Program-made: the position numbers and the translations under genes
Shown: positions 11,596 through 61,938 of the stretch, one piece after another
Numbering within the stretch: position 1 is the stretch's first letter
Layout: every line of letters begins with the position of its first letter
Notes under the pieces: generated by a model
Told to the model about the DNA's origin: nothing
Database searches by the model: none
The model's input: the letters and a program-made list of their open reading frames with translations, nothing else
NCBI GenBank assembly: GCA_964424075.1
Contig: CAYRGY010000003.1
Coordinates: forward strand, 42,985 to 106,984
DNA: 64,000 nt
From: an uncultured Candidatus Peribacteria bacterium
Lineage (GTDB): Bacteria > Patescibacteriota > Gracilibacteria > UBA1369
Direction of reading: 5' to 3'

Positions 11596-14208
11596 TTATT
11601 TTCCCCAGCGCCAGTCTACAACATCCTGGAAATCAACTCCTTCAGCCATAACTTTTTTCTTGTGATCAACCAAGCGTTTTTGATATTTCTTCATTACAGC
11701 CCAAGCTCTCTTGGCAAACTGTTTATCCGGATTAGTAATACCAGCTTTCTGCATCGCTTGAACAATTAATTGGAAACGACTTGTACCGTTCCTAACATGC
11801 ATATCAAACGGTGTAGTAGTAGAACCTTCCTCCTGATAGCCATTCACTACAAATCTTTCCTCCGCATTTGGAACTCCAAACACCAATTTATAAACCAAAT
11901 GAGGATAGCCATGGAAATTGAATATCACCGGTTTATCTTCAGTATAATATTTATAGAAGCCTTTGAGATTATTCCTACCAATTGGTTTAGCTGCTGTTCC
12001 AATCCCATTGGCTGTCATTTCCAACACATTCACAAATCGAATCTTAAAATCAGGGTGTTCATATTTCAACATATCAATTGCCGCCATCATTTCTTCCACC
12101 ATATAATCACCTGCCGCAGAAAAGACAATATGTGGATTGCGGGCAGCACTCTTATCAATCCAATCCCAAGTTGAAATTCCGGTCTTTAATTGCTCACGCG
12201 CTTCTTTCAATGTTTGCCATTGAGGCATTTCTTGTTTACCCGCCTCAATTACATTTACTCGGTTACGTCTTTCTAAGCATTCCTTCATCACCACCATCAA
12301 AGTATTTCCGTCAGGCGGTAAGAACACAGAAGCGAGTTCTCCATGCTTTTCCAAAACAGAACTGACAAAGCTTGGATTTTGATGAGAATAACCGTTGTGT
12401 TCCTGTCGCCATTCCACACTACTTAATATATAGTTCAATGATGGGATTGGTTTTCTGAACGGAATTCTTTGCGCTTGTTTAATAAATTTCAAATGTTGAT
12501 CTACCATAGAGGCGTTAATCATGGCGAAAGCCTCATAAGTTACAAATAAACCATAACGTCCGGACAAGTTGTAACCTTGCAACCAACCTTGCAGTGTATG
12601 CTCTGAGAGCATTTCCAAAACACGACCTTTGGAAACAATAGATTCGTCACCCTTTTTCACCGGCCAAACATATTGACGACCCACTGTGGTTAGCAATTTT
12701 CCGAATTTATTGGAATCAGTTTCGTCAGGACAGAAAAAGCGAAATGACTTGGTAGTTTTGGCATCTTTAACCATCAAATCAGAAAGCCATTCAGCCATAA
12801 TTGCTGTAGTACGTCCTTCAATCTGACCGCGTCCTCCCTTAAACTCATATTTCTCTAATTTAGGCATCCATAGCTTCTTAACCAGATTACCACCATATGC
12901 ATGTTTGGTTTTACCCAAGCGTAAATTACCCTTTGGCAAATATTTAAGAACCTTTGGCAATGGCTTGCCTTTTGCATCAAGCAAATCTTGCACATTATAT
13001 GACTTTAACCATTCCTGTAGAGCTTTAAATTGCTTAGGATCCTTTTTAACATCCTTAAGCGGCACCCCATGTGATCGATAATTATCTTCAACCCTCTTGT
13101 TTCCAATTCGTTTAGTTCCAGTCCATCCTTTCATGGATCGGAAAATTATCATCGGCCAACAAGCTTGTTTTACACATTTTTCTTTGCGAGCTTTCCTTTG
13201 AATCTCTTTAATCATTTGATATGCCTGCTCCATACGATCCGCCATACACTGATGCAATGTCTCAGGCTCATCCACTACGAAAAGTGGTTTATATCCATAT
13301 CCCATAAACATGTTTTCCAATTCCTCATCACTCATAGTAGATAAAATGGACGGACCGGAAATCTTATAACCGTTAACATGAATAATTGGTAAAACTGCAC
13401 CTGATTCTGCAGGGTTTATAAACTTATTACTATGCCAAGCTGTTGCAATTGGGCCTGTTTCAGCTTCACCATCACCTACTATACAAACAGCTAACAGGTC
13501 AGGATTATCCATAATAGCTCCAAAAGCTGTGGATAAAGAATATCCAAGCTCCCCTCCTTCACAAATACTTCCAGGAACATCAGGCGTAACATGACTTGGC
13601 AATGCATATGGCCAACTAAAATCTTTCATCATCTTACCCAAACCTTTCGCATCCCGAGTATACTTTTTGTAATAGTCTGACATGGAACCATCAACAAAAT
13701 TACAAGCCAAATTAGCTGGGGCACCATGACCGGGCCCTGTTATAAATATAGTTTCCTGTTTATGCTTTTCAGCCAAATAACTGGCATGAGCATAAAGAAA
13801 ATTCAAACCAGGCACTGTGCCCCAATGCCCTAAAATTCGATCTTTAATATCACTTTTTTTGAGAGGCTTCTTTAATAAGAAATTGTCTTTTAAATAAAGA
13901 CATCCCGCTCCAATATAGTTAGTCAATGCATGATAATCTTTGAACCATTGGAGAGTTTCAGGATTCAACTGAAAAGTCGAAAACTTGGAGCTACCTTCAG
14001 CAAAACTAATTTTTTTAACTGTTACCGCCTTTTTAATTGGAGCTTTTTTAACTACCGGAGCTTTCTTTTTAGCGGCAGATTCAGTCTTTTTAGCAGGTGC
14101 CTTCTTTTTAGCGGCAGATTCAGTCTTTTTAGCAGGTGCCTTCTTTTTAGCGGCAACTTTTCCAACTGAAGCTTGCTTTTTGGTTGGTGTTTTTTTCTTT
14201 GTTGGCAT
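11596..14208 (-). CDS. xfp: xylulose-5-phosphate/fructose-6-phosphate phosphoketolase with a Lys/Ala/Pro-rich N-terminal extension
   Basis: 870-aa ORF with GHWGTVPGLNF, GDGEAETGP and EHNGYSHQNP motifs. Homology to phosphoketolases starts at about residue 73, and residues 1-70 are low-complexity and basic. Confidence 0.9.
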   Translation of the reverse strand: MPTKKKTPTKKQASVGKVAAKKKAPAKKTESAAKKKAPAKKTESAAKKKAPVVKKAPIKKAVTVKKISFAEGSSKFSTFQLNPETLQWFKDYHALTNYIGAGCLYLKDNFLLKKPLKKSDIKDRILGHWGTVPGLNFLYAHASYLAEKHKQETIFITGPGHGAPANLACNFVDGSMSDYYKKYTRDAKGLGKMMKDFSWPYALPSHVTPDVPGSICEGGELGYSLSTAFGAIMDNPDLLAVCIVGDGEAETGPIATAWHSNKFINPAESGAVLPIIHVNGYKISGPSILSTMSDEELENMFMGYGYKPLFVVDEPETLHQCMADRMEQAYQMIKEIQRKARKEKCVKQACWPMIIFRSMKGWTGTKRIGNKRVEDNYRSHGVPLKDVKKDPKQFKALQEWLKSYNVQDLLDAKGKPLPKVLKYLPKGNLRLGKTKHAYGGNLVKKLWMPKLEKYEFKGGRGQIEGRTTAIMAEWLSDLMVKDAKTTKSFRFFCPDETDSNKFGKLLTTVGRQYVWPVKKGDESIVSKGRVLEMLSEHTLQGWLQGYNLSGRYGLFVTYEAFAMINASMVDQHLKFIKQAQRIPFRKPIPSLNYILSSVEWRQEHNGYSHQNPSFVSSVLEKHGELASVFLPPDGNTLMVVMKECLERRNRVNVIEAGKQEMPQWQTLKEAREQLKTGISTWDWIDKSAARNPHIVFSAAGDYMVEEMMAAIDMLKYEHPDFKIRFVNVLEMTANGIGTAAKPIGRNNLKGFYKYYTEDKPVIFNFHGYPHLVYKLVFGVPNAEERFVVNGYQEEGSTTTPFDMHVRNGTSRFQLIVQAMQKAGITNPDKQFAKRAWAVMKKYQKRLVDHKKKVMAEGVDFQDVVDWRWGK
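14060..14157 (-). repeat. 39-bp tandem repeat inside the phosphoketolase 5' coding region
   Basis: Two perfect 39-bp copies lie at 14071-14109 and 14110-14148 (plus strand AGCGGCAGATTCAGTCTTTTTAGCAGGTGCCTTCTTTTT), with partial copies on each side. They encode AKKKAPAKKTESA twice. Confidence 0.9.
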
Positions 14209-14892
14209 TTATTTTTGGGTTATCAAATTTATTAATAAATTTTTATTTTTTTCTAATTGATTTAAAAGATCATTATAATCCTCGACCAGCATAACAGCTC
14301 CAGCCTCAATTAACAACTCCGGAGCAGTTGTAGTCTTGAGTCCTATACACTTAAGACCTGCTGATGTAGCACTTCTTACTCCCGCAACTGAATCTTCAAA
14401 CACTACAACTTCAGCGAGCCCTAATGACATTCTCTTTAAGATTTCTAGATAGACATCCGGAGCAGGCTTATTATTTTTAACTTCATGAGCAGAAATATAT
14501 TTTTCAATTTTTCCCTTAATGCCAGAAAAATCTAGAATCTTCTCCATCGTCACCAAAGTGGCACCTGAAGCAACTCCCAAACGCCAGCCTTGCCCCTCAA
14601 CATAATCAATAAATTTTTCAATACCTGGCACAGTTTCCACCCCATCCTGCTCATCAATCACTTCCAATAAATATCTATTCTTTTTCTCTAAACAAGATTC
14701 ATAGTCATATTGCTCCTGACCCAGCACGCCCTCCATAATTGCTTTGGCGCCCTGACCAACATACTTTTCAAAATATTCTTCCAATGAAACGGACTTTCCA
14801 AACTCATGAAAAAGCCTATCATAAGCAAGTGCATGCAAATGATTGCTACGAGTTATGGTCCCGTCCATATCCAGTATAATGGCTTTTAGCAT
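14209..14892 (-). CDS. HAD-IA family hydrolase (beta-phosphoglucomutase-like)
   Basis: 227-aa ORF with HAD motif I (ILDMDGT) and motifs III/IV near the C-terminus. Its stop codon abuts the xfp start codon. Confidence 0.8.
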   Translation of the reverse strand: MLKAIILDMDGTITRSNHLHALAYDRLFHEFGKSVSLEEYFEKYVGQGAKAIMEGVLGQEQYDYESCLEKKNRYLLEVIDEQDGVETVPGIEKFIDYVEGQGWRLGVASGATLVTMEKILDFSGIKGKIEKYISAHEVKNNKPAPDVYLEILKRMSLGLAEVVVFEDSVAGVRSATSAGLKCIGLKTTTAPELLIEAGAVMLVEDYNDLLNQLEKNKNLLINLITQK

Positions 14893-37196: not shown

Positions 37197-37572
37197 GATT
37201 CCTATTAGTGAGCAATCACTGTGATCTTTAAGAACACAGAGGAAAGTCCGAGCACCACAGAGAAAGGTAACAGCTAACGGCTGTGGCTCTACCCTCATAA
37301 GGCAGAGTACGGAAAGTGCCACAGAGACAATACTAGCCAGCATTTGCTGGTGAAAGGTGAAAAGGCTCGCTCAGCGGGCAAAAGCTGGTAAAAACAGCAT
37401 TTCGGTAAACCCTACCCGGTGCAAAGTGGGATGGGAGAAGAAGGCAAAAGCTTACTCTCTGAAGCTCTTTACTCCCCACTGCAAGAGGCAATTGGCGACA
37501 ATTGTCCCAGATAGATGATTGCAATCATGCCTTGGCATGATACAGAACTCGGCTTATGATCTAATAGGTATC
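37197..37572 (+). ncRNA. rnpB: RNase P RNA (bacterial type A)
   Basis: Universally conserved P4 strands are present: GAGGAAAGUCCGAGC at ~37239 and ACAGAACUCGGCUUA at ~37542. Also present are AGUGCCACAGAGA and GGUAAACCCUACCCGGUGCAA. P1 pairs CCUAUUAG (37201) with CUAAUAGG (37561), P2 pairs GCAAUCA with UGAUUGC, and P3 is the hairpin CUGUG...CACAG. The ends are approximate, within about 5 nt. Confidence 0.9.
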
Positions 37573-49324: not shown

Positions 49325-50760
49325 TGCAAAGCCATCATAATACAAGCATTTATAAAACGGCCGTAGATTTATACAAACAGATAAATCGAATTTGCCATCA
49401 CAAAATTAATTTACCTCTCTTTTTCCAGCTTGAATCAGAAGCCATTAATTTAACTACAGATATTGCCTTAAGCATTGATCAGGATTCTAAAAAAGAGCAG
49501 GATACAAAACTCCAAAAAAGTCTTGCTCATTTTAATCGTATCTCCCAGCTTATTCAATTAGCTCTGGAACAAAAGCAAATATCCCAACATGACAGCGAAA
49601 AAATTGCCGCTTCAATTACTGTGTTTAGAAATCAGGTAGATTATTTTATTAATCACCGACCAACAATATTAATACTCAGTTCTATTTTTGGACAAGGTCA
49701 CATGAGCGCGGCCAAAGCAATTAAAGAAGGTTTTGAAAATTTATATGGCAAAAACTACAACGTTGTCATCATAGATTTTGTTGAAGAAATTGGTACATTC
49801 CTTAATAAAACCACACTTTCTGCCTACGAAAATTCCACCAAATACGCCCCACAGTTTTATAAAGCCTTTTTCGATTCCACTGACAGCCAGTGGCAAGTAA
49901 AGCTTTTTAATATCCTCAACTATCCGCTCAGCGCCAAAAAACTCGAAAAGCTTTTTCAATCTTATAATCCGACACTGACAATTTCCACTTTTCCGGTTTG
50001 GGATTATTTAGCCTCCATGGTGCTTAAAACATGTGATAATCAAAAATTCATTTCTATCGTTACTGATTCGATATCCATTCACAGCGTTTGGATGACAGGT
50101 AATCCGGATTATCACATTGTCGCCAACCAAGAAACAGCGGAATCTCTATACAAATTGGGTGCTCGAACTGAAAAAGTTCAAGTGCTTGGTTTCCCGGTTA
50201 AACTAAGTTTTGCTGAAAAACCTAAGCGTCAGGAAATTCTTAAATCGCTAAATTTAGATCCCAAGAAATTTACCGTGCTCTATTTGCCTGCGAGTAAACC
50301 TTTGTCGACTTCAAGAAGAATTAAAGAAATCCAAAAAATGCACCCTGACATCAATCTGATTGTCGTCTGCGGACGGAATAAAGAGCTTTTGCCTAAACTG
50401 CGAAAATTCAAAAACGAAAAGAATATCTGCATTCTGGGCTGGACCAATCAATTGCCTGAAATCATGAAAAGTTCCGATGTGGTAGTCACCAAAGCCGGCG
50501 GCGCCACTGTAATGGAGTGTATAGCAGCTAAAAAACCTATGGTAATAACTCAGGTAATACCTGGGCAAGAACTGGGAAATGCCGAATTAATTGAAATTCA
50601 CAAATTGGGAATAATCAAAAAAAGAGCACGCAAATCTATTGCCGAATGCATCGAAATCATCAAAAAACATCAGCATTCCTATCAAAGACATCTCAAGAGA
50701 ATTTCCAAACCGCAAGCAGCACTAGCCATCGCCAAATTTATTCAATCGCAGATCGACTAA
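49324..50760 (+). CDS. GT28 lipid glycosyltransferase (MGDG synthase/UgtP-like) with a ~110-aa N-terminal four-helix-bundle-like extension
   Basis: 478-aa ORF. The GT core starts at about residue 115 (ILILSSIFGQGHMSAAKAIKEGF) and includes ...TKAGGATVMECIAAKKPMVI. No start codon lies near the core boundary. It has a TAATG junction with ackA. Confidence 0.8.
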   Translation: MQSHHNTSIYKTAVDLYKQINRICHHKINLPLFFQLESEAINLTTDIALSIDQDSKKEQDTKLQKSLAHFNRISQLIQLALEQKQISQHDSEKIAASITVFRNQVDYFINHRPTILILSSIFGQGHMSAAKAIKEGFENLYGKNYNVVIIDFVEEIGTFLNKTTLSAYENSTKYAPQFYKAFFDSTDSQWQVKLFNILNYPLSAKKLEKLFQSYNPTLTISTFPVWDYLASMVLKTCDNQKFISIVTDSISIHSVWMTGNPDYHIVANQETAESLYKLGARTEKVQVLGFPVKLSFAEKPKRQEILKSLNLDPKKFTVLYLPASKPLSTSRRIKEIQKMHPDINLIVVCGRNKELLPKLRKFKNEKNICILGWTNQLPEIMKSSDVVVTKAGGATVMECIAAKKPMVITQVIPGQELGNAELIEIHKLGIIKKRARKSIAECIEIIKKHQHSYQRHLKRISKPQAALAIAKFIQSQID

Positions 50761-52766
50761 AGCATCGTACGATGAATGGCATTGTTGGTTAACAAGTACA
50801 ATGTATTGGTATCCACATCAACCACCAAGTCTTTTAGATTTTGCAGTTCATCAAAGATATACTGACCAGTATAAACCGCTCCTCCAGTTCGATCATCTTT
50901 CAAGTAAATCAGTACTCGATTTTCATTCGGCTCCAAAACATAAATCTGATCCATCTCAGGCTCTGTATAAATCTTAGTAGGCTTCACAACTTCCTTAACA
51001 GGCTGATTCTTGATTGGGAAATCCTCTTTGTTGCCTCTAAACAATCTGGTGATATATCCGTCATCATGAAGAATGTATATATTTCCATCAATCGCTAAAT
51101 CAATAGCATTGCTTAGATCAGCTCCTACAGCATAAGCTTCAGCAGCATCGAATCTGTCTCTGGTACGGGTATACCTCCACAACTGATTCCCTTCAGGATC
51201 CAACAAATAAATCTTATTGCTATAAGCGTTAATTGCTACACCATCTTTAAATGTTTCGTCAGAAGTAGATAAGAAATTCATTCGATCATCAGCATATTCG
51301 ATAACTTTGTCCGAATCGGTAAAAAACAGAATAGAATCCCGATCATCATAATTAATTCCGACAATTACTTGCTCATTATCATCAATGGTCAGTGGATCAG
51401 ATACTTTGTCACCTACAACCGGATACAGAGCATTATATTCATATGCAAATAACTCATCATTCAATCTTAACATACCCAAAGCATCAACATTATCTCTTTT
51501 GTCAGCCAAATTAGCGATCATTTGAGTTTCAGGTCTGATTACACCATCCAAACTATCCCGAGTCTCCATAATTTTATCTAATAGAATACCAGCTTTCTCA
51601 TTGTGATAATCTGTATTATAAACTTCAATCGCCAAAGATTCGGCGTTAATTAAAATTTCGCCAGCTCTTTCCTTATCAAATTGACCTGTAGTTATAGCTG
51701 AATCAATTTGTTGTTGAACTTCAATCAATTGATTAGATAAATCAACTACTTTTTGATCTTGCTGCTCTTTAGCACGCAACCACCAAACTCCTGCTGTCAG
51801 AATTATTATCAATGCAATAATCGCCAATAAAATCTTCTCTTTACCTAAATTCATTAAATTAAACCCACCCTCACTTCCTGTTTCAAATCTTTGCATAGAC
51901 TTTCGGGAAGACAAATCTGTAACGGATTTTTTAATTCTCTGATAATACTCATTCGCCTTAGCTTTAATTTGCTTACCAGTTAAGCTCGGGTTCAATTTCC
52001 CGGGAATTGCCCTTTGATCTTGTAAATCCTGTTCAGATACATCTTTATATGACTCTTCTTTTTCATGATAAGTGACTACTCCTGCTGAAGCAGTGTCTTG
52101 TAACCCCTGCTTACCGGCAGATGAATGAATACCTACTAGCCCGATCTTATTCAGAACTTCAGCTTGTAATTCGGTTTTTAGTGAACTCATGGTTTCATCC
52201 AATCTTCCTGATATCAACTTAATCAAATCAGTCTTAGCTATATATCTTAATAGTCTAGTTGTACTAAACAATAGGAAATCATTATTCTCAATTGCACCGG
52301 AAGCAATATTAGTAAACACCTCTCGATCATTACCTTCATCAAGTCCTTCACTAATTGTAGTTAAAAATCGCTTGCGAATCAGATAGGCTTCAGCTTCTCC
52401 TGTTTGAGTTAAATAAACAGTATCATTGACCACTGCAGCTAATATTACATTTAATTGACCCAAAAATTCATTATCACGCTCGCCCTTATAAACACTTAAC
52501 GCCTTATTAACTTCTTTTAACGCCTCCTCAAATCTTTCATAAGGATCAATATCCAAATCAGCAAAGAAAACCCTACGCATATTATCAAAAATGATTTCTC
52601 CTACCTTTTCAGCATCGAAAGCATTTTGTTCAATATTTAAATTAACAAAAATTTTGCCACTATTTTCCCCTCCCTCACCTAAGTCGTATGCATAATTCTC
52701 AACAAAACCTCCTTCGTCTCTGCCGATAAACAGGAATTCATATTGAGTACGTAAATTTTTAGACAT
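50757..52766 (-). CDS. hypothetical membrane protein: degenerate PP2C-like N-domain, one TM, C-terminal beta-propeller-like repeats
   Basis: 669-aa ORF. The N-terminal region has a PP2C-like strand pattern (LNVILAAVVNDTVYLTQTGEAEAYLIR...DFLLFSTTRL) but lacks the metal-binding Asp motifs. The TM is ILLAIIALIIILTAGVWWL. The C-terminal region carries 5 repeats of the type KIYLLDPEGNQLWRY, NIYILHDDGYITRLF and QIYVLEPNENRVLIY. Confidence 0.6.
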   Translation of the reverse strand: MSKNLRTQYEFLFIGRDEGGFVENYAYDLGEGGENSGKIFVNLNIEQNAFDAEKVGEIIFDNMRRVFFADLDIDPYERFEEALKEVNKALSVYKGERDNEFLGQLNVILAAVVNDTVYLTQTGEAEAYLIRKRFLTTISEGLDEGNDREVFTNIASGAIENNDFLLFSTTRLLRYIAKTDLIKLISGRLDETMSSLKTELQAEVLNKIGLVGIHSSAGKQGLQDTASAGVVTYHEKEESYKDVSEQDLQDQRAIPGKLNPSLTGKQIKAKANEYYQRIKKSVTDLSSRKSMQRFETGSEGGFNLMNLGKEKILLAIIALIIILTAGVWWLRAKEQQDQKVVDLSNQLIEVQQQIDSAITTGQFDKERAGEILINAESLAIEVYNTDYHNEKAGILLDKIMETRDSLDGVIRPETQMIANLADKRDNVDALGMLRLNDELFAYEYNALYPVVGDKVSDPLTIDDNEQVIVGINYDDRDSILFFTDSDKVIEYADDRMNFLSTSDETFKDGVAINAYSNKIYLLDPEGNQLWRYTRTRDRFDAAEAYAVGADLSNAIDLAIDGNIYILHDDGYITRLFRGNKEDFPIKNQPVKEVVKPTKIYTEPEMDQIYVLEPNENRVLIYLKDDRTGGAVYTGQYIFDELQNLKDLVVDVDTNTLYLLTNNAIHRTML

Positions 52767-55187: not shown

Positions 55188-56228
55188 ATGCTGCCATCAG
55201 GCAAAATAATGCTCTTTTCACTACTGGGATTAATCCCCTTAACTACCTTTGCTCAGTCTGAAATCACTAGTGATGGTATTCCACTCGATCAGGAAATTAT
55301 CCAAGAAGACCAAATAACAACTGAAGTTATCGAAGCGGTCCCGGACATTTTCCCCGATATTATTGAAGGCAGTGATTACTATGTAGCTGTCGGCTACCTC
55401 AAAGCTGAAGGTCTGGTGGAGGGTTATCCGGACGGTCTTTTCCGAGCAGATCAAGCCATCAACAGAGCAGAAGCCTTAAAAGTACTGAATCTCGCTATCC
55501 CTTTCGATTCATTAAATCCCGTCGAAAAACCGCTAAGCTCCCAAATCGCCGAATCTGACTTCTCAGATTTTAATTGCGATTTCCCTGACATTCACAATAC
55601 TGACTGGTTTTTCCCCTATGTTTGCGACGCTTATGATAACGGAATAGTTGAAGGCTACCCTGATGGAACATTTAAACCTGGTCAAACCATCAATTTAGTT
55701 GAAGCCTTGAAAATTGTAATTATTCACAGTGGAATCAATTTGCCTGAATCCACAGAAAATTTTGGCAATGTAAACTCTAATGATTGGTTTGCGCCTTACA
55801 CAGCATTTGCCAAATCCACAACTATTATTCCTACCAACAAAAGTAATCAAATAGATGCTGCATCTAAGCTAACTCGAGGTGATTTTTCCTTGCTAATCTA
55901 CCGCTTTATACAAAATCGGGCCTACCAAAACACTTATGGAATTGCTTCTTATTATGGACCGGGATTTAATGGACGCGGAACTGCTTCAGGAGATGTATTC
56001 AATTCCACTTTAATGACTGCAGCTCACCGAACCCTTCCTTTCGGAACAATTGTCGAAGTAACCAATTTACGCAATGGCAAAAGCATTCAAGTAAAAATTA
56101 ATGATCGAGGTCCTTATGTCGAAAGCCATATAATCGATTTATCCACTGCTGCATTTGAAGAAATTGCCAGATTAAGCTCCGGTTTGGCTCCTGTGGAAAT
56201 ACAAGTAATTAGTGACAATGGTATCTGA
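55188..56228 (+). CDS. SLH-domain protein fused to an RlpA-like double-psi beta-barrel (lytic transglycosylase-like) domain
   Basis: 346-aa ORF with a signal peptide and three SLH-like repeats (for example DYYVAVGYLKAEGLVEGYPDGLFRADQAINRAEALKVL). The C-terminal region GIASYYGPGFNGRGTASGDVF...LPFGTIVEVTNLRNGKSIQVKINDRGPY is typical of RlpA. Confidence 0.8.
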   Translation: MLPSGKIMLFSLLGLIPLTTFAQSEITSDGIPLDQEIIQEDQITTEVIEAVPDIFPDIIEGSDYYVAVGYLKAEGLVEGYPDGLFRADQAINRAEALKVLNLAIPFDSLNPVEKPLSSQIAESDFSDFNCDFPDIHNTDWFFPYVCDAYDNGIVEGYPDGTFKPGQTINLVEALKIVIIHSGINLPESTENFGNVNSNDWFAPYTAFAKSTTIIPTNKSNQIDAASKLTRGDFSLLIYRFIQNRAYQNTYGIASYYGPGFNGRGTASGDVFNSTLMTAAHRTLPFGTIVEVTNLRNGKSIQVKINDRGPYVESHIIDLSTAAFEEIARLSSGLAPVEIQVISDNGI

Positions 56229-56548: not shown

Positions 56549-56623
56549 TGGTAGCGATACGGGGAATCGAACCCCGGTTTCAAGGATGAAAACCTTGCGT
56601 CCTAACCACTAGACGATATCGCC
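56549..56623 (-). tRNA. tRNA-Glu (anticodon UUC), CCA encoded
   Basis: The reverse complement GGCGATATCGTCTAGTGGTTAGGACGCAAGGTTTTCATCCTTGAAACCGGGGTTCGATTCCCCGTATCGCTACCA folds into a cloverleaf. It has a 7-bp acceptor stem (first pair G-U), D arm GTCT/GGAC, anticodon stem CAAGG/CCTTG with loop TTTTCAT, and T arm CGGGG-TTCGATT-CCCCG. Confidence 0.93.
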
Positions 56624-57082
56624 ATATTGGTCTACCTGTAGGTAGTTATTCAGATCTGTCGGCCAGTTGCACGGCCAACTAGCGAAAGCATTATAGGTAA
56701 AAAGAGCCTAAAGTCAAATGGAATTCACAGCATCTATCTCTACTAACTTAGGTATAATTCTTAGAATATACCTATAATCTATCCTTGATCCTCAGAAAAT
56801 TGCTCATCTATAATTTTTTTCAATACGTTTCAAAACAACATCATCATTCACCTTAACCAGAACCTCTTTCAATCCAAAAATCCTGGCAAGTCTTATCGAA
56901 CAAAGAGGTACTTCAAAAAGCTTAGTAGAGTTAAAAGTCATGTTAGCTATTTGGTTAAAGTATGAGAATTAATTAAACTCACAAACTGTTAATAGTATAT
57001 TATAAACTACAAGTTGCATCTATATTAGATATTTGACACTTAGGCTTATCAGTATTAACTTTTAGCCAATATAATTCAAAAC

Positions 57083-57571
57083 ATGAACACCCCCGACAGC
57101 TATCAGATTAAGGATGCGAATATTCAAGGACGACTCATTGTGAGTCACCCAGAATCCGGCAAAAACTATAAACTGGATGCGATAGACACAGAGATTAATG
57201 TTATCGAATCAGAACTCATCGAATTTGATCCCGAAAAAGAGCACCCGATTTTAGACTATTTTCGTGTTCAAACCAGTTTTTTAAATGAAATGCTCAGACA
57301 AATCGATGTAGAAATGACTGAGGGAAACGTAAAAAAATTCGCTTATCTCTTGGCAATAGTCTGTCAATATCGTCTAATCGACGGTCGCATCGAATGGGGA
57401 GATCACGACACTCGGGCTAAAACCAAAAATGCTAAGTTTAGAATTGAAAAAAACTTCCCTAAGTACGCTGAAGCGTTGGGAATTGAAAAATCACTGTTCA
57501 CGCTGGCCGATCGCTTCATTGAAACCCGCTTTCAAGTGGAAAGCGTACTTAATCAAATAGCCGGAGAATAA
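57083..57571 (+). CDS. hypothetical protein (orphan ORF in an AT-rich low-density region)
   Basis: 162-aa ORF with no recognisable motif. It is flanked by 460 and 285 nt of non-coding DNA. Confidence 0.5.
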   Translation: MNTPDSYQIKDANIQGRLIVSHPESGKNYKLDAIDTEINVIESELIEFDPEKEHPILDYFRVQTSFLNEMLRQIDVEMTEGNVKKFAYLLAIVCQYRLIDGRIEWGDHDTRAKTKNAKFRIEKNFPKYAEALGIEKSLFTLADRFIETRFQVESVLNQIAGE

Positions 57572-57856
57572 CTAGCAAACTTATGTCCATCTCACCACAA
57601 TGCGATCTATGCACAAAATAAATTTTACCATTACCGAAATAGACGTTGATGACGCCTGCATACCCTGGGAAGCTCCTCATGCAATTGCCTATCCCTAAAC
57701 TAATTAATATCGCTTATGAAACAAAAAGACACCGGTTTAAAACCAGAGCGGCATAGCGCTTGCACCCTTCTGATCTAGCTGTATTGCAACAATTTGCACC
57801 GGATAAAGTGCTAGCCAGAAGGATTGGAATTGAATATCAAGACTAAGAAATAGTCA

Positions 57857-58837
57857 CTAAGAAGCCTCCAACTCATCAATAATTTCCCTGGCCCGATCTT
57901 TGATATGCCTGGCAATCGGTTGTGTTTCATTATTTGCCTCCCAAGCTTCGGTTGCTTTTTCAATTGTTTGATTAGCCCAATCCAATGCCTGATCGGAATC
58001 ATTCTGTAAAGCACTGATATAGGCATTAACCAAATAGTCATAAGCTCTGGCAATCTTTGCCGCCCCCAAGACTACATTGTTTTCCGGCATATTAGAATAC
58101 GCCTGCTGAGTTAAATCCACACCCAGTTCAGCAGCACGTTTGGCACTAACAATGTCATTTGAAGCAATATATATTTCGATTTGAGCCATTTGCGCTTCAG
58201 ATTCATCAATTAAAAATTGAGTGTTTTTTCCATTCAAAATTACAATCATTAAATACAGAATTTCTGAAACCTCCGCTCTGGAAAGTTGCTTCCCCGGCTC
58301 CAGATTATTCTCCTCAGACGGCGTAATTAAACCGGCCTTACCCGCATAATTCATATATGGAGTAAACCACTCCTGCTCAGGCACATCTTCATATAGCTTT
58401 TGATTCTCCCATTGCTCATTCTTAAAACCAATACTATTCAAAAGAATTTTCAAAAACTCACTGCGCGCCACGGAACGATCCGGAGCATAAGTCCCATCAG
58501 GATTGCCATTAATCACACCTTTTTCTTTCCCATAAGCAACATATTTGGCAAACCAAGCATCTTCCGGGACATCAGAAAACAAATCGGCTGTCTCCAAATT
58601 CTCATCGATTTCTATGGTCAGCCCTTCAAAAATAATTTTGAGAGCTTCCGCACGATTAACTAGTTTATCAGGCTGAAATGTCCCATCTTCATAACCTTGC
58701 AACACTGCTTTCTCACTAAGATAATTAATTGCAACATAATGAGGATCAGTATTGGTAACATCGGAATAGGCAAAAGCCAGACCATTAAAAGTCATAATTC
58801 CGACAGTCAGCACCAACAATTTAGCTAGAGTTTTCAT
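57857..58837 (-). CDS. S-layer homology (SLH) domain protein with a C-terminal helical domain
   Basis: 326-aa ORF with a signal peptide (LAFA/YS) and three SLH repeats: YSDVTNTDPHYVAINYL...VNRAEALKII, FSDVPEDAWFAKYVAYG...VARSEFLKIL and YEDVPEQEWFTPYMNYA...LSRAEVSEIL. A ~130-aa alpha-helical region follows. Confidence 0.8.
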   Translation of the reverse strand: MKTLAKLLVLTVGIMTFNGLAFAYSDVTNTDPHYVAINYLSEKAVLQGYEDGTFQPDKLVNRAEALKIIFEGLTIEIDENLETADLFSDVPEDAWFAKYVAYGKEKGVINGNPDGTYAPDRSVARSEFLKILLNSIGFKNEQWENQKLYEDVPEQEWFTPYMNYAGKAGLITPSEENNLEPGKQLSRAEVSEILYLMIVILNGKNTQFLIDESEAQMAQIEIYIASNDIVSAKRAAELGVDLTQQAYSNMPENNVVLGAAKIARAYDYLVNAYISALQNDSDQALDWANQTIEKATEAWEANNETQPIARHIKDRAREIIDELEAS

Positions 58838-58889
58838 TTTTTTGTTTTATTATTGCAATAATTTTAGACTAAATCTCGAATTTTCACAA

Positions 58890-58926
58890 CAAAAAAGCGC
58901 TCTCCCTTATACCAAGGAAAAGCGCT
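58890..58926 (-). terminator. strong Rho-independent terminator after the 543-aa surface protein gene
   Basis: On the minus strand: a 13-bp stem AGCGCUUUUCCUU-GGUAU-AAGGGAGAGCGCU (two G-U pairs) followed by UUUUUUG. It starts 15 nt after the stop codon. Confidence 0.8.
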
Positions 58927-58940
58927 TCGAAAATCTAATC

Positions 58941-60572
58941 TTAATTACTGTAGTTCAATTTCAATTGCCCAATATTTGCTTCACCATCATTAGGATTATC
59001 ATCAGCCATTAATGTTACCACAAACTCTGCAATTTCTCCTGCTGTCAGGGTACAAGCACCCACTGCAGTTGATCCGTTGTTAACCCATACACCTCCTGTC
59101 ACACTGGCAAGTTGTCCTGAATCGCCACAAGAAGTTCCACCAATATCATCCAACAGTTGAACTTGCACCCAGTTATCAGTAGTACCTGCAACAGCAGTCA
59201 TATATTCATATTCAAAAGTTGAAGCCGTAGAATAGTCACTAGGAACAGGGAAACTAAATCTTAATTGAATTTGTTGTGGATTATTCCTATTGGTTGTCCA
59301 TCGATAATAATTTCCATCAGTAGTGTCATAAAGAGCATCCAAACGACCACGACTATTTGCCCCATTGTTTTGATATACAACTGTATCGGGATATTCAGGA
59401 TCGAAAACCAACACATCATTTTCAGCGCTAAGAGCAGTATTCAAATCTCCAATTTCACTATCAATGGATTCCAATGCGTCTTGAAGATCAGTTACAGTTC
59501 CAACAGGATCAATATTTTCCAGATTTGCACCTGTATCTTCCACACCGACTAAAGAAGCACCTTCACCATTGGCAGTTGAAACGAATTGATTGATAGCATC
59601 TAAAATACCAATTGCGCCAAATGTCACATCCAATCCGTCATCTCCTGTAGAAAGGGAAACCGGAGAAGTCATATCATCATCTTGGAAAGTAATATCACCG
59701 GTTGTCAATACATCAAATGTTGCAGCATTGAAATCAATATTGTTTACATTTGTATAGTTAAGATTACCAGTACCTCCCAAATCATAAGTGATGCTTCCTC
59801 CACTAGTATCGAATGTACCATCATCATTGGCATAAATATCCTCAAAGTCAGGACCAATCCAAGCTGATCCGGCAGCATTACATGAATAAAGCTGATCAGA
59901 TGTTTGATCAAAATAGATTGAACCAGGAGTACATGGTGTACCTGGAAGACCGACACCAGTAGGAATAACTAAAGTACCTGCAGAAGCATCCACAGTTCCA
60001 GTTCCATCAATAGTAAGAGTTCCACCTTGATAAGTATCAGAAGTATCACTTCTCAAGAATTGTGTGGAATCCAATCCATCCAGAAGATCTGCATTACCTG
60101 AAACAGCAGTCCAAGTATCGGTTGCTGTATCCGTACAAAGATACAATTGTTCACTGGCGGGTCCGATATCAACAGCTAATTCGCCATCTGTTGTACAAGC
60201 CGGTGCATTTCCCACTCCTGTAAACACTCCTCCAAAATCTACTTCCCTTATTCTCATACTATCAGCAGCAGAAAAATTTACATTTCCATCTGCTTCGACA
60301 TCGCCGGAAATATCCAGATTTCCAGTAACATCAACTGTACTATTGATTAGGAACTCACTTAGACCATTATCCCAGATAATAGTACCGTCTGTTCCATCAT
60401 TACCCATTTGCAAGGTAACATCGACATCTCCTCCAGAATAGTCAGAATCAATCAACAGACCTTCGGAAAGAATGTCATGGAAATCGTCATCCTGGAAAAG
60501 GATAGCTGCATTAGCAGTAGCTGACATTGTCAATAAACTGACTGCCGCAAGTGTACTAATAAGTTTTTTCAT
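58941..60572 (-). CDS. secreted Thr/Gly/Asp/Asn-rich fibre-like surface protein (tail-fibre-like motifs), paralog A
   Basis: 543-aa ORF with a signal peptide (TANA/A) and almost no Lys/Arg. Motifs include LLDGLDSTQFLRSD, two Cys-bracketed repeats (CTTDGELAVD..EQLYLC......W and CTPGSIYFD..DQLYSC......W), and a C-terminal ~155-aa domain shared with the upstream paralog. Confidence 0.7.
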   Translation of the reverse strand: MKKLISTLAAVSLLTMSATANAAILFQDDDFHDILSEGLLIDSDYSGGDVDVTLQMGNDGTDGTIIWDNGLSEFLINSTVDVTGNLDISGDVEADGNVNFSAADSMRIREVDFGGVFTGVGNAPACTTDGELAVDIGPASEQLYLCTDTATDTWTAVSGNADLLDGLDSTQFLRSDTSDTYQGGTLTIDGTGTVDASAGTLVIPTGVGLPGTPCTPGSIYFDQTSDQLYSCNAAGSAWIGPDFEDIYANDDGTFDTSGGSITYDLGGTGNLNYTNVNNIDFNAATFDVLTTGDITFQDDDMTSPVSLSTGDDGLDVTFGAIGILDAINQFVSTANGEGASLVGVEDTGANLENIDPVGTVTDLQDALESIDSEIGDLNTALSAENDVLVFDPEYPDTVVYQNNGANSRGRLDALYDTTDGNYYRWTTNRNNPQQIQLRFSFPVPSDYSTASTFEYEYMTAVAGTTDNWVQVQLLDDIGGTSCGDSGQLASVTGGVWVNNGSTAVGACTLTAGEIAEFVVTLMADDNPNDGEANIGQLKLNYSN

Positions 60573-60613
60573 TTTGATTTTGGTTATTAAATCTTAATAT
60601 TATAACATAAATT

Positions 60614-61876
60614 TTATGATCCAACAAAGTTCAATTTCATTTTTCCGGCAAATGCTGCCCCTGAACTGTTGGCTGAGAGCTTAACTTTGATAGTTATCGA
60701 CTCCCCTGCAGTAATAGTAGGAACGCCTACAAAACCAATTGTAGTGGAAGTCCAACTTGAAGAAACCAAACCAGACGCACCGGTTAAACCTACACTAGCT
60801 CCTAAAGTATCTTCCATTTCAATATCAAGCTGATTGTTAACAACATCCCCATCCAAAGTCCTGTACTCAAATTCAATAGGAGACACACTGTCAAAAGCTA
60901 CAAATCCTTCAGGGATTTTAAATCTTAATACTAAATCCGTATCTTGCTTGACGCCGTTCCTGGTAGTCCATTGATAATAGTTTTTATTATCATTCCCCGG
61001 CACGCCGTCATTATCAACAAAGAATACTTCCATCTTACCCCGGTTGTCAGACCCATCCCCATTGATAACCGTATCAGCATAAACCGGTTCATAAACTATG
61101 CTTTGCGCATATGGACCGACCGGAGCGCCATTAACAGTTAAGTCACCTTCAATATTAACTGAATCATTAAAATTGAAATAACCCATATCCAAATCATATT
61201 CTAAAATTTTGCCTAAAGTTCTGCCAAATTGAAGAATAATTGACCCTGTTCCAGCAATCTCGACAGAATTGTCCTGATCTAAAACAAAAGCTTCTTGATT
61301 TACTCCATCCGGTAGAATTGAGAAATCCAGGATTCCACTTCCATCCAAAATCGGAATTTCAAATGGACCAAAACCCACATCATAATTATCAACTGTGTCA
61401 GCATTTATAGTATAAGGCACAGACGTAATCGGTTTTCGATCCTCAGCATTATCTATTCCATCAGGATCAAGCACTTCAAAAGCGCCACCACCACTTGGTC
61501 TGACTTCCACCTGCAAATATAAATCCTCAGCCAAAGTAAAATTGGGTAAAGTCATTTGACTACCTAATTGAACTGTAAAAATTCCTTCAACATTGGGAGT
61601 TACGGTATAAGTTTCCTCCCATGAAGTAAATCCGGCGGCACCTGGATCAATTAACGTTCCACTAAAATCAGTCGGGTCAACATCCGCATCAGTCCAGATA
61701 CTAAAACGAATATCATGAGGCGTCTTTATCGAATCTCCAAGTGAATCATTAAGCTTGGCTGTATAGGTCATGGTATATGGAGCAGTTGTCACTCCCGGAG
61801 GAGGCGCTGCTATAACAGATGTATATAAGAGCAATACTCCAACTACTATAATCAGATTTTTCAAAATTTTTTTCAT
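60614..61876 (-). CDS. secreted fibre-like surface protein, paralog B
   Basis: The preferred start is the ATG at 61876 (MKKILKNLIIVVGVLLLYTSVIAAPPPG signal); the track start is 61921. The C-terminal domain is alignable to paralog A: YEPVYADTV vs FDPEYPDTV, NRGKM vs SRGRL, YYQWTTR vs YYRWTTN, LRFKIP vs LRFSFP, FEYRT vs FEYEY, TAGESI vs TAGEIA, and GKMKLNF vs GQLKLNY. Confidence 0.7.
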   Translation of the reverse strand: MKKILKNLIIVVGVLLLYTSVIAAPPPGVTTAPYTMTYTAKLNDSLGDSIKTPHDIRFSIWTDADVDPTDFSGTLIDPGAAGFTSWEETYTVTPNVEGIFTVQLGSQMTLPNFTLAEDLYLQVEVRPSGGGAFEVLDPDGIDNAEDRKPITSVPYTINADTVDNYDVGFGPFEIPILDGSGILDFSILPDGVNQEAFVLDQDNSVEIAGTGSIILQFGRTLGKILEYDLDMGYFNFNDSVNIEGDLTVNGAPVGPYAQSIVYEPVYADTVINGDGSDNRGKMEVFFVDNDGVPGNDNKNYYQWTTRNGVKQDTDLVLRFKIPEGFVAFDSVSPIEFEYRTLDGDVVNNQLDIEMEDTLGASVGLTGASGLVSSSWTSTTIGFVGVPTITAGESITIKVKLSANSSGAAFAGKMKLNFVGS

Positions 61877-61909
61877 TTTCGCTTTTGGCACACTTTGAAT
61901 TATCCAATT

Positions 61910-61938
61910 ATTATAACACAATTGTTAAATCGACTCAA
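61910..61938 (-). promoter_or_regulatory. extended -10 sigma70-type promoter for the surface-fibre operon
   Basis: On the minus strand: TTGAGT, a 17-nt spacer ending in TGT, then TATAAT, 34 nt upstream of the ATG at 61876. Confidence 0.5.

Follow-up and report, generated by a model that had tools for sequence, protein, structure and literature searches.

A conserved gene trio for putative surface-fibre proteins and an SLH protein in a Peregrinibacteria-lineage genome

S-layers have been reported on ultra-small cells belonging to the candidate phyla radiation (CPR), and in BclA, collectins and phage fibres, the distal heads are laid out as a jelly-roll that comes after a coiled-coil-like neck. 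S-layer genes were mentioned but not identified in the Peribacteria genome paper (PMC4736985), and a bioRxiv preprint reports the identification of S-layer proteins within Patescibacteria (10.1101/2024.05.28.596244). Here, we examined a window of 64,000 nucleotides (the whole stretch of DNA that was analysed) from an uncultivated and probably host-dependent bacterium, a member of the Peregrinibacteria lineage, with respect to three genes designated A, B and C (Table 1). An original prediction made from the letters alone had placed three genes here, and the open reading frames were confirmed, all of them on the minus strand. It had also regarded them as a surface-fibre or S-layer-associated module, which we retain in a qualified form: the anatomy of exported surface proteins, a conserved linkage to an SLH gene and some support for fibres speak for it, and the carbohydrate-binding-module (CBM) fold and lineage-wide spread of the shared C-terminal domain (CTD) qualify it. 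Judged from sequence, the trio is probably part of the cell surface or attachment machinery. We consider it fairly likely that A, B and C represent a lineage-specific surface-fibre and anchor module of the cell envelope in the Peregrinibacteria/Gracilibacteria branch of the CPR.

Table 1. Positions of genes, domains and transcription signals at the A/B/C locus, in window coordinates
Feature	Position	Strand	Description
Promoter of gene A	61910-61938	minus	TTGAGT, 17-nt spacer, TG-extended TATAAT
Gene A	60614-61876	minus	420 aa counted from ATG; signal peptide, AN (N-terminal beta domain), AM (fibre-repeat segment), CTD (jelly-roll)
Signal peptide of A	61808-61876	minus	Residues 1-23, cleavage after VIA; read from sequence
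AN domain of A	61430-61789	minus	Beta-rich, ~120 aa; own HMM, E 1.8e-47
AM segment of A	61124-61429	minus	Fibre-repeat or neck region, own HMM; ...LQFG...L.(Y/W)D....F.F...V.I.G.L...G
CTD of A	60620-61108	minus	Shared C-terminal jelly-roll; own HMM; pLDDT >90 over most
Second extended -10, TGTTATAAT	60599-60607	minus	A-B spacer, 26 nt upstream of B start codon; read from sequence
Gene B	58941-60572	minus	543 aa; signal peptide, N-terminal peptide AILFQDD..., AM-like unit, mosaic fibre region, CTD
AM-like unit of B	60291-60452	minus	Residues 41-94, homologous to middle of A
First Cys-knob module of B	60111-60197	minus	C126...C146...W154; pLDDT 77-86
Tail-fibre-type motif of B, GNADLLDGLDSTQFLRSDTSDT	60033-60098	minus	Residues 159-180
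Second Cys-knob module of B	59859-59933	minus	C214...C231...W238; pLDDT 83-89
Short helix before CTD of B	59448-59486	minus	AlphaFold2 helix 363-375, heptad spacing, L/I at 3-4 spacing
CTD of B	58944-59423	minus	Shared jelly-roll, own HMM; Cys pair typical of B-type copies
Intrinsic terminator after B	58894-58928	minus	16-pair hairpin (G-T counted), then T-run
Promoter-like site for gene C, weak	58861-58889	minus	TTGTGA-17-TAAAAT, 9/12 positions (consensus scan)
Gene C	57857-58837	minus	326 aa; signal peptide, three SLH repeats (58241-58771), HEL domain (57863-58240)

The extended -10 promoter that had been proposed upstream of A was the best of 21 matches in a consensus scan (14.3 +/- 3.6 expected from shuffles), with 10/12 consensus positions and the upstream TG. 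At loci L003, L008-L011 and L013, the region upstream of the A orthologue again contains an extended -10, here TGTTA(T/A)AAT, in sequence that is otherwise unalignable. The hairpin terminator after B, likewise part of the earlier reading, has counterparts (hairpin plus T-run, with differing sequences) downstream of B in L003, L006, L007, L013 and L015; both signals are thus found again at orthologous loci where the surrounding sequence is not conserved. The idea of one operon needed correction. The 41-nt spacer between A and B contains an extended -10 of B's own, so that a strict single-promoter A-B operon is not established, and C, lying beyond the terminator and behind its own weaker promoter-like site, forms a separate transcription unit. 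The site in the spacer did not appear in the list of the consensus scan because no good -35 is located at 16-18 nt. The mechanical open reading frame of gene A begins at a TTG (61921). The genes around the trio are core chromosomal genes, including those for SecA, FtsK, GltX, YidC and Jag, and the synteny with housekeeping genes is kept in L003.

All three proteins begin with Sec-type signal peptides that can be read from the sequence, as had been predicted for A and B, and are thus expected to be exported: the mature parts start at APPPG after MKKILKNLIIVVGVLLLYTSVIA in A, at AILFQ after MKKLISTLAAVSLLTMSATANA in B and at YSDV after ...GLAFA in C. The signal peptide of A shows a basic n-region, a hydrophobic core and an A-x-A site, and AlphaFold2 modelled residues 2-18 as a helix. 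The skewed composition with few Lys and Arg was also confirmed, both proteins having a pI of 4.05; K+R amounts to 5.5% in A, which lacks Cys, and to 2.0% in B, in which D+E reaches 15.7% and T+S+G+N+D 49%. When the sequences of A and B were read by eye, no LPXTG motif, lipobox or C-terminal membrane helix was seen, and a Pfam search of the two proteins found no SLH domain.

Homologues of A (n=92, identity 32-58%) are near full length in about three quarters of cases, and those with a named source all belong to Peregrinibacteria, Gracilibacteria or Patescibacteria. The AlphaFold2 monomer of A had a mean pLDDT of 80. Its most conserved part is AN (57% mean pairwise identity), which was modelled with pLDDT >90 across residues 40-150 and had no match among PDB sequences in a profile search. 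The AM segment was modelled with low monomer confidence (pLDDT 45-65); according to our own HMM, its unit occurs many times over in large neighbouring proteins. B is more variable, its homologues (n=34) ranging from 400 to 930 aa and differing by large indels in their central part, and confidence in its AlphaFold2 model is confined to small knobs and the CTD. Conservation in the B alignment extends to the first Cys-knob, which also occurs as an insert in many A orthologues, and the second knob has a pattern that matches it, as read from the sequence. Between the knobs, the motif GNADxLDGLDSxQFLRSD corresponds to five distinct repeats of the tail-fibre-type protein P0033, which is 930 aa long and contains Pfam PF13884 (Peptidase_S74). 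The fibre character of A and B, presumed to reflect an oligomeric state, receives some support from this S74-fibre motif, from viral structure matches (tail fibres and minor tail proteins in BFVD) and from the low confidence of the middle regions, the non-terminal parts of both proteins being poorly modelled as monomers.

The similarity between A and B that had originally been noticed is that of their C-terminal domains (~160 aa), and it was reproduced by BLASTP (A 260-417 vs B 388-541, 30% identity, E 1e-17), with HMM bounds within a few codons of those first proposed. A second, weaker similarity had been overlooked: residues 41-94 of B matched an HMM built from A orthologues over AM (17.9 bits, E 1.6e-7 when searched against a single sequence), and most orthologous loci show the AM match at the N-terminal end of their B-type genes (own HMM). 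No sequence family in Pfam, NCBIfam, PHROG or PDB was matched by A or B, in line with the earlier reading, which had not recognised the CTD as any named family. AlphaFold2 modelled the CTD of both proteins as a confident jelly-roll. In Foldseek searches, the nearest structures were CBM61, CBM6, CBM35, CBM4 and CBM11 together with C-terminal domains of phage tailspikes (CBM61 TM 0.54-0.66); the matches of A included CBM61, CBM35, CBM11 and tailspike C-terminal domains, and those of B the K2-2 tailspike (E 8e-7), CBM61 (TM 0.66, rmsd 3.8 A), CBM6 (TM 0.62) and CBM35 (TM 0.57). The modelled likeness to CBMs is generic and confined to the fold (TM 0.5-0.66 against small CBMs, identity 8-17%). A match to a known enzyme or carbohydrate-binding family with an ordinary role had been named as a finding that would speak against a surface module; no enzyme is attached, and the CBM-type jelly-roll goes half way towards such a match.

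The CTD is not private to the two paralogues, and the sequence searches describe it as a lineage-wide C-terminal module. A profile search collected 2,167 clusters at 50% identity, and in all of the best 150, from which the architecture counts were taken, the domain ended within 8 residues of the C-terminus. These 150 comprise 27 A-type clusters, 48 B-type clusters and 28 with a long N-terminal extension before a complete AN-AM-CTD unit; such extensions often bear Cys-rich DUF4215 repeats. The N-terminal AILFQDD... peptide, nearly invariant in the B family, is carried by 48 of the same 150. Partner domains were of adhesin or fibre types (DUF4215, Big_6, Mtd_N, beta-helix), and no catalytic domain was found on 40 long CTD proteins. 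An arrangement in which the C-terminal unit stays constant and the parts ahead of it vary is what characterises a retention or assembly module.

The three SLH repeats described for C were recovered by Pfam (E 3.9e-31). Of the helical domain that had been proposed beside them, a conserved C-terminal domain (HEL) was verified; it is probably helical, and its FliS-like match was weak (E 0.043 in PDB, 0.11 in Pfam). Orthologues of C share full-length identity, HEL included, of 67% (L003), 56% (L001) and 38% (L005). Among GTDB species genomes, the A family was found at 57 loci, 52 of which are labelled Peregrinibacteria, Peribacteria, Gracilibacteria, Altimarinota or Patescibacteria, and the other five merely 'bacterium' or 'uncultured bacterium'; each of the six complete chromosomes matched gave one A locus. 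Of 32 well-flanked loci, 30 have another gene with the CTD no more than 4.5 kb downstream of A. The linkage to an SLH gene, suggested earlier as a point to check, was borne out: at 20 of the 32, an SLH+HEL orthologue of C is no further than 7 kb from A. The four different gene arrangements observed speak for selection on the linkage rather than frozen synteny. On the other hand, no C orthologue was located within 7 kb at 12 of the 32 loci, and A and B may therefore be independent of C.

Based on these data, A and B would be Sec-exported, acidic, beta-rich fibre-type proteins with a fibre-repeat unit and a 160-aa jelly-roll CTD in common, the latter serving as the standard C-terminal module of the surface proteins of this lineage. 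C might bind the wall polymer through its three SLH repeats and present its helical domain. A, being conserved, usually single-copy and strongly promoted, may act as the constant structural subunit, and B, mosaic and variable in length, as the variable fibre. Both could be retained non-covalently at the wall by docking on C, by binding of the CTD to wall glycan or by both, and the assembled proteins would mediate contact with other cells. We lean slightly towards the CTD as a cell-proximal retention module rather than a distal head. This polarity would be reversed if the neck and jelly-roll of B correspond to the layout of known distal heads, or if the conserved AILFQDD... peptide is the true anchor.

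Such an opposite orientation, in which A and B are anchored N-terminally (through AN and AILFQDD..., respectively), possibly by docking to C's helical domain, and the CTD is a distal lectin head for host glycans, is possible but rather unlikely. It would resemble phage tail fibres, Bdellovibrio MAT fibres and BclA, and it agrees with the lectin/CBM-type fold of the CTD, whose best matches include receptor-binding tailspike domains, with the near-invariance and spread of the N-terminal peptide of B, and with the short heptad helix ahead of its CTD, possibly a coiled-coil neck but weak as evidence, only ~11 residues being conserved family-wide. However, what stays constant in this family is the CTD, although the tip is normally the variable part of a host-recognition fibre, and the long Cys-rich adhesin-like extensions of 28 clusters would then sit beside the wall.

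We find it doubtful that A is an S-layer lattice protein for which C provides the SLH anchor or stalk, with B and longer paralogues joining the lattice via the shared module, an arrangement comparable to SlaA/SlaB and the two SlpA subunits of Clostridioides difficile. An acidic, Cys-free protein with predicted export, strong and conserved promoter and terminator, a single locus per complete chromosome and linkage to an SLH protein would be suitable for this role. Nevertheless, A is small (~400 aa when mature) with about a quarter of it at low monomer confidence, fibre-like more than tile-like, its SLH partner is a separate polypeptide, and sequence motifs and viral structure matches indicate fibres.

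It is improbable that A and B, as soluble secreted proteins, bind glycans in order to capture or scavenge substrates, with an ordinary CBM role and an incidental SLH neighbour. The CBM-like fold, the lack of an anchor motif in both proteins and the 12 loci without a nearby C are in line with this explanation, but the 40 long CTD proteins showed no catalytic domain, the partner domains are those of adhesins or fibres, the architecture is mosaic and rich in repeats, and the SLH+HEL linkage persists across its different arrangements. That A and B are the remnant of a prophage or tailocin whose tail-fibre genes were captured by the chromosome is largely refuted and very improbable: although B shares its motif with an S74 tail-fibre-type protein and the CTD resembles tailspike domains, with BFVD matches to tail fibres, both proteins have Sec signal peptides, their genes are surrounded by core genes and not by phage genes, housekeeping synteny is conserved in L003, no relatives were found in 50,697 phage records (tblastn) or in IMG/VR (pattern scans, then tblastn), and Pfam found no S74 domain in A or B.

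The conservation of A across a deep lineage (40-58% identity) is unusual for an exposed surface protein, and hints at a role more constrained than adhesion.

The locus consists of three minus-strand genes, of which A and B encode secreted fibre-like paralogues and C encodes an SLH protein. At the start of each product, the sequence shows a Sec signal peptide with a terminal A-x-A site, and N-terminal helices are present in the AlphaFold2 predictions. A and B have the same pI of 4.05; in B, K and R make up only 2.0% of residues, and T, S, G, N and D 49%. Both expression signals named in the original prediction, a promoter for A and a terminator after B, were recovered as the top sites of their kind, and both have counterparts at orthologous loci in genomes of relatives (L003 and the like below). 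An extended -10 element, TGTTA(T/A)AAT, lies 5' of A in L003, L008, L009, L010, L011 and L013 within otherwise unalignable DNA, and hairpins with a T-run, differing in sequence, follow B in L003, L006, L007, L013 and L015. The expression signals of A-B are strong and conserved, and A is probably highly expressed. C sits past the terminator, with a weaker promoter-like site of its own.

Features of the A-B-C locus, its surroundings and orthologous loci (positions are those of the sequence named in the second column)
Feature	Sequence	Position	Strand	Details
Locus of A, B and C	Window	57857-61938	minus	
Gene A	Window	60614-61876	minus	420 aa counted from ATG
Gene B	Window	58941-60572	minus	543 aa
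Gene C	Window	57857-58837	minus	326 aa
Promoter-like site	Window	61938-61910	minus	TTGAGT-17-TATAAT with upstream TG; best such site in region
Second extended -10	Window	60599-60607	minus	TGTTATAAT; within 41-nt A-B spacer; read from sequence
Terminator-like hairpin	Window	58928-58894	minus	16 pairs and T-run; best such site in region
Variable stretch	Window	56624-57856		between C and the tRNA-Glu/SLH-DPBB block
162-aa ORF	Window	57083-57571		in the variable stretch
tRNA-Glu(UUC)	Window	56549-56623	minus	single
SLH-DPBB gene	Window	55188-56228	plus	1.6 kb from C
669-aa ORF	Window	50757-52766	minus	
RNase P RNA, class A	Window	37201-37572	plus	198 bits
368-aa gene	L001	6787-7893	plus	between SLH+HEL gene and A
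YafQ/RelB pair and three small ORFs	L003	12121-14233		spot equivalent to the variable stretch
Flanks of A and SLH gene	L005	1-6872	minus	
Flanks of A and SLH gene	L005	12081-14675	minus	
SLH+HEL gene and second SLH gene	L011	13655-15230		
SLH+HEL gene, tandem duplicate	L012	7234-9134		
SLH+HEL gene and second SLH gene	L013	10459-11987		
Third AN+AM gene	L021/L022	~13020-14680		AN internal
Third AN+AM gene	L027	7315-7902		AN internal
Third AN+AM gene	L058	13003-14475		AN internal

It had been proposed that A and B have a C-terminal domain in common (about 160 aa, here called CTD), and BLASTP confirmed it, aligning A 260-417 with B 388-541 at 30% identity (E 1e-17). An HMM of AM, the fibre-repeat segment in the middle of A orthologues, matches B residues 41-94 (18 bits, E 1.6e-7). 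In most orthologous loci, B-type genes show this match at their N-terminus, and large neighbouring proteins show it repeatedly; AM is therefore better regarded as a fibre-repeat unit than as a unique neck. A small Cys-knob module, found twice in B, sits between AM and CTD in many A orthologues. A and B therefore follow one plan: in A a signal peptide, an N-terminal beta domain (AN), AM and CTD, and in B a signal peptide, a conserved and nearly invariant N-terminal peptide (AILFQDDDFHDILSEG), AM, a variable region and CTD. The AlphaFold2 model of A (mean pLDDT 80) is confident for the N-terminal beta domain (residues ~33-150, ~120 aa) and the C-terminal beta-sandwich (256-420), and of low confidence in the middle (150-250). 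The model of B (mean pLDDT 66) is confident only at the two Cys knobs, a short helix (363-375) and CTD (385-543). Modelled as monomers, both proteins have pLDDT 45-65 in their middle regions. Within CTD, pLDDT is above 90 in A and 80-92 in B.

Neither A nor B gave anything usable against Pfam, NCBIfam and PHROGs (E up to 1) or in phmmer searches of PDB sequences; marginal G5, VacA2 and phrog matches were at chance level and were discarded. A CTD profile matched PDB sequences only at E >= 0.067 (Photorhabdus lectins and a protocadherin), which we took as noise. The AN profile had no matches among PDB sequences, and a word-indexed protein search with the AN alignment, meant to connect A with MAT or S74 fibres beyond the CPR, returned 17 proteins, mostly fragments, with no informative domain. 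With no sequence match in Pfam, NCBIfam, PHROGs or the PDB, the claim that CTD lacks a named family was borne out.

The fold of CTD, on the other hand, proved to be of a familiar carbohydrate-binding type. Foldseek searches of the PDB, in which the queries were whole-protein models and CTD dominated the matches, placed CTD among jelly-roll carbohydrate-binding modules, including CBM61 2xom (TM 0.54 for A and 0.66 for B), CBM6 (TM 0.62), CBM35 (TM 0.51-0.57), CBM4 and CBM11, with target-normalised TM of ~0.51-0.66 and rmsd of 3.8-6 Å for the group. C-terminal domains of phage tailspikes were also matched (Klebsiella K2-2 TSP 8iq9, CBA120 TSP4 5w6h and Kp7 gp52 7xyc; E 8e-7 to 3e-5, rmsd 4-5 Å over ~160 columns, identity 10-14%), and the top matches among viral models were minor tail proteins, S74-domain proteins, tail fibres and collagen-repeat proteins. 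As sequence identity in the Foldseek matches is 8-18%, the likeness is at the level of fold only. The CTD models have the beta-sandwich jelly-roll of the CBM6/35/36/61 type, and no CBM family model was among the Pfam matches of CTD even at E <= 1. To our knowledge, the conserved CTD motifs PEYPD, DGxxNxG, NYYxWTT and LPxDF also differ from those of the CBM61, 6, 35, 36, 4 and 11 families. Judging from the predicted structures, CTD is nearest to the CBM6/35/61 group, yet by sequence it belongs to none of these families.

A further likeness concerns the variable region of B, in which residues 156-186 (GNADLLDGLDSTQFLRSDTSDT) match five separate repeats of P0033, a 930-aa protein carrying PF13884 (Peptidase_S74), at 42-69% identity (pairwise E 2e-7 to 4e-5). 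B contains the S74 fibre-stalk motif (A/G)NADxLDGxDSxQFLRSD, and A only a weak form of the tail-fibre motif, INADTVDNYD (E 0.04). The C-terminal chaperone domain of PF13884, with its SDxxxK motif, had no match in A or B, both of which end in CTD.

As for gene C, the three SLH repeats originally read in it were recovered by Pfam as three stretches of PF00395 (107.2 bits against a cut-off of 20.8, E 3.9e-31). C is a typical SLH-family protein whose C-terminal domain of ~127 aa (HEL) is undescribed and is conserved in C orthologues (38-67% overall identity). Its composition and weak all-alpha matches suggest that HEL is helical; a FliS-like match (E 0.043 in PDB, 0.11 in Pfam) was too weak, being at chance level. 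The SLH+HEL gene, as we call the orthologue of C, is duplicated in tandem in L012 and followed by a second SLH gene in L011 and L013. In the window, the SLH-DPBB gene directly 3' of the Jag/KhpB gene, an arrangement kept in L003, codes for a protein in which a signal peptide and two SLH repeats precede a DPBB domain (RlpA-like lytic transglycosylase) at the C-terminus, so that at least two unrelated wall proteins here use SLH anchoring. The variable stretch beyond C holds a 162-aa ORF with no family match, and the equivalent spot in L003 holds a toxin-antitoxin pair.

To survey gene linkage, all fetched loci were mapped with our own HMMs, and counts refer to the 32 that have sufficient flanking sequence. 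Of these, 30 have another CTD gene no more than 4.5 kb downstream of A, and 20 have an SLH+HEL gene no more than 7 kb from A (17 within 5 kb), so the expected linkage to an SLH gene is conserved. The SLH+HEL gene occurs on either side of A: downstream it is co-oriented or convergent, upstream it is co-oriented or divergent, and a linkage that outlasts such rearrangement suggests a functional tie. L003, from a close relative, shows full synteny, with ferredoxin, DHH, A, B and C followed at some distance by SLH-DPBB and Jag. More distant contexts include SLH, a 368-aa gene, A and B; A followed directly by SLH, beside type IV pilus genes; and A, then genes for 626, 1188 and 281 aa, then SLH.

Some of these loci contain additional genes. 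The 368-aa protein of L001, a more distant relative, combines a helix of signal or membrane type with STNY(D/N)L repeats, an extended PEPP/PSQP-type stretch rich in Pro and a membrane segment at the C-terminus. In that lineage it may be a further part of the module that spans the envelope. The flanks of L005, in which A is followed directly by SLH, encode a 5,845-aa protein with faint SLH, Big_1, FG-GAP and TSP3 matches, as well as a pilin-like N_methyl gene and T2SSE/T2SSF genes of type IV pili. According to the HMM map, L020, L023, L024 and L026 show the same pattern of A, SLH+HEL and a reverse-strand CTD as L005. In L021/L022, L027 and L058, a third gene with AN and AM (an extended A-type) lies downstream of A and B, which indicates that paralogues of the module build up in tandem arrays.

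For A, 92 homologues share 32-58% identity with it; some three quarters are nearly full-length, and those with a name are from Peregrinibacteria, Gracilibacteria, Altimarinota or Patescibacteria. Scanning one genome per GTDB species with the A-family alignment gave 57 loci, of which 52 are labelled as from the Peregrinibacteria/Gracilibacteria branch and five only as 'bacterium' or 'uncultured bacterium'; these labels describe the range of A-bearing genomes. Each of the six complete chromosomes matched, which include OZ246407.1, OY970195.1 and OY782391.1, gave one A locus. The 34 homologues in the B family are 400-930 aa long and differ by large central insertions and deletions.

A CTD profile built from 34 CTDs and scored against 1.84 billion representative proteins matched 2,167 clusters at E <= 1e-3 (1,800 at E <= 1e-10). 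Among the best 150 of the 2,167 clusters, the distance from the end of CTD to the C-terminus has a median of 1 residue and a maximum of 8. The same 150 include 27 clusters of A-type and 48 of B-type architecture, 28 with an N-terminal extension of ~160-800 residues (mostly >300) ahead of a complete AN-AM-CTD, 20 with other N-termini and 27 fragments. Enzyme domains were found on none of 40 long CTD proteins, and cluster look-ups for ten such proteins gave no useful names. Pfam DUF4215 Cys-rich repeats occur in 12 of the 40 and connect CTD with the large extracellular proteins, rich in Cys, that were pointed out in the first Peribacteria genomes (PMC4736985). Four of the 40 also match transposase-type HTH domains (HTH_32, HTH_28, HTH_29 and HTH_23), which may be gene-call fusions with an adjacent insertion sequence and not real architectures. 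We found no paper describing the A/B/CTD family, and a metaproteomic paper on BD1-5 Gracilibacteria contained nothing about it.

The module thus comprises two proteins with export signals on one modular plan, a lineage-wide CTD of CBM fold and a conserved SLH-HEL partner. Most likely, A and B would assemble at the cell surface into fibres that are oligomers, probably trimers. As neither carries a recognised anchor, they would be retained there non-covalently, either via C, via glycan binding by CTD, or both, and their variable parts may be displayed for cell-cell contact. The original prediction is partly supported: the surface module, its SLH linkage and the lack of a named family for CTD stand, the fold turned out to be a known one, and host attachment is a possible role.

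With regard to which end of A and B faces the cell, we lean slightly towards CTD as a constant, cell-proximal module for retention or assembly rather than a distal head, because it is the invariant element behind very diverse N-terminal parts, including adhesin-like Cys-rich extensions. The reverse polarity, with CTD as the distal head, is slightly less favoured. It would agree with the short heptad helix ahead of the jelly-roll in B and with the near invariance of the N-terminal peptide of B, and phage fibres, the MAT fibres of Bdellovibrio and BclA all put such heads distally.

A may also have an S-layer role, with C as the stalk. SLH-anchored or two-component surface layers include Sulfolobus SlaA/SlaB, the SlpA subunits of C. 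difficile and Deinococcus SlpA with HPI. As these systems do, the locus would pair the gene for a wall- or membrane-bound stalk with that for an exported acidic structural protein, and its expression signals are strong. However, A and B resemble fibres and not tiles, and HEL has only ~127 aa.

If CTD is indeed a cell-proximal retention module, its counterparts would be the non-covalent C-terminal wall-retention modules, such as WxL (enterococci and lactobacilli), CWB2 and the C-terminal domains of T9SS. In each case a single C-terminal domain is found on many otherwise unrelated exported proteins of one lineage, and the genes cluster with those for anchor-type proteins. CTD differs in having no Pfam or NCBIfam relation to these modules and a CBM-like fold, and its retention function is one that we infer. 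A T9SS-type sorting domain was rejected, since no T9SS C-terminal-domain model was among the Pfam/NCBIfam matches of A and B and since T9SS, which carries cargo across the outer membrane, requires such a membrane, assumed absent from an SLH-anchoring wall.

By analogy, the functionally nearest systems to A and B appear to be the MAT fibres of Bdellovibrio (PMC10769870) and phage receptor-binding fibres. MATs of Bdellovibrio bacteriovorus are mosaic adhesive trimer fibres in which a signal peptide is followed by a conserved beta-rich N-terminal domain of ~130 aa, and the fibres are intertwined trimeric beta-prisms (Caulton et al. 2024; PMC10769870). They share with A and B the mosaic fibre region, a C-terminal beta-sandwich domain, kinship with S74 tail-fibre proteins (through the motif in B) and a producer that lives, presumably so in the case of A and B, on other bacteria. 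On the other hand, the C-terminal tip is variable and swappable in MATs, whereas CTD is constant across ~2,170 clusters; A and B lack the S74 chaperone domain, and they belong to a CPR bacterium with SLH wall anchoring and not to a Gram-negative predator. Phage tailspikes likewise have a jelly-roll domain at the end of a fibre-type protein, but A and B have signal peptides and no beta-helix depolymerase body or virion-attachment domain. With CBM61/6/35/36/4/11, which are galactose-binding-domain-like beta-sandwiches, CTD shares the fold, but it stands outside their sequence families and has no attached enzyme.

A prophage remnant is very unlikely: the window is core chromosome (SecA, FtsK, GltX, Pta-AckA, YidC, Jag, RNase P RNA and tRNA-Glu), the neighbours of the locus (YidC, Jag, the SLH-DPBB protein, ferredoxin and a DHH phosphoesterase) are not a phage structural block, GenBank phages contain no tblastn match to A or B, and alignment patterns of A, B and CTD found no confirmed relative on IMG/VR viral contigs, although these patterns are short conserved stretches that distant viral relatives could escape.

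Peregrinibacteria and their relatives are uncultivated, have reduced genomes and presumably spend their lives attached to other cells; as far as we know, hardly anything is established about the proteins of their surface or those used for attachment. The A-B-C locus provides candidate surface parts, namely a conserved A, a mosaic B and a predicted wall anchor C. From sequence and models, A-B-C would be an uncharacterised, lineage-wide surface-protein system made of familiar building blocks (SLH repeats, a CBM-like jelly-roll and tail-fibre-like repeats), which offers testable handles on the cell surface of uncultivated episymbionts and does not contradict current understanding. CTD tags ~2,000 clusters of surface proteins, among them the large Cys-rich proteins of the first Peribacteria genomes, and its profile could be used to catalogue the surface proteins encoded by any given genome of this lineage, to choose antigens for labelling cells in enrichments and to read cryo-ET densities. 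Much more tentatively, CTD might be an undescribed retention/assembly domain for surface proteins, specific to the Peregrinibacteria/Gracilibacteria branch of the CPR, with A and C as an S-layer-like base into which all CTD proteins plug, an idea that we consider rather doubtful. If true, A and C would be a constant two-component scaffold of the cell surface, and the proteins plugged into it would include the B fibres with their mosaic build and the giant Cys-rich proteins, for which a role in host attachment has long been suspected. Such a base would amount to the system by which these episymbionts display their entire adhesin repertoire.

Several minor features of the window were also observed. 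The RNase P RNA and the tRNA-Glu gene are the sole Rfam/ARAGORN matches in the 64 kb. The 669-aa ORF, which has no Pfam match at E <= 1e-5, adjoins an MGDG-synthase-like glycosyltransferase and Pta-AckA. G+C is 36-42% across the whole window, with no compositional island at the A-B-C locus. GC skew is below zero in all 2-kb bins of positions 1-64000 (-0.02 to -0.28), and negative skew peaks where the genes are on the minus strand.
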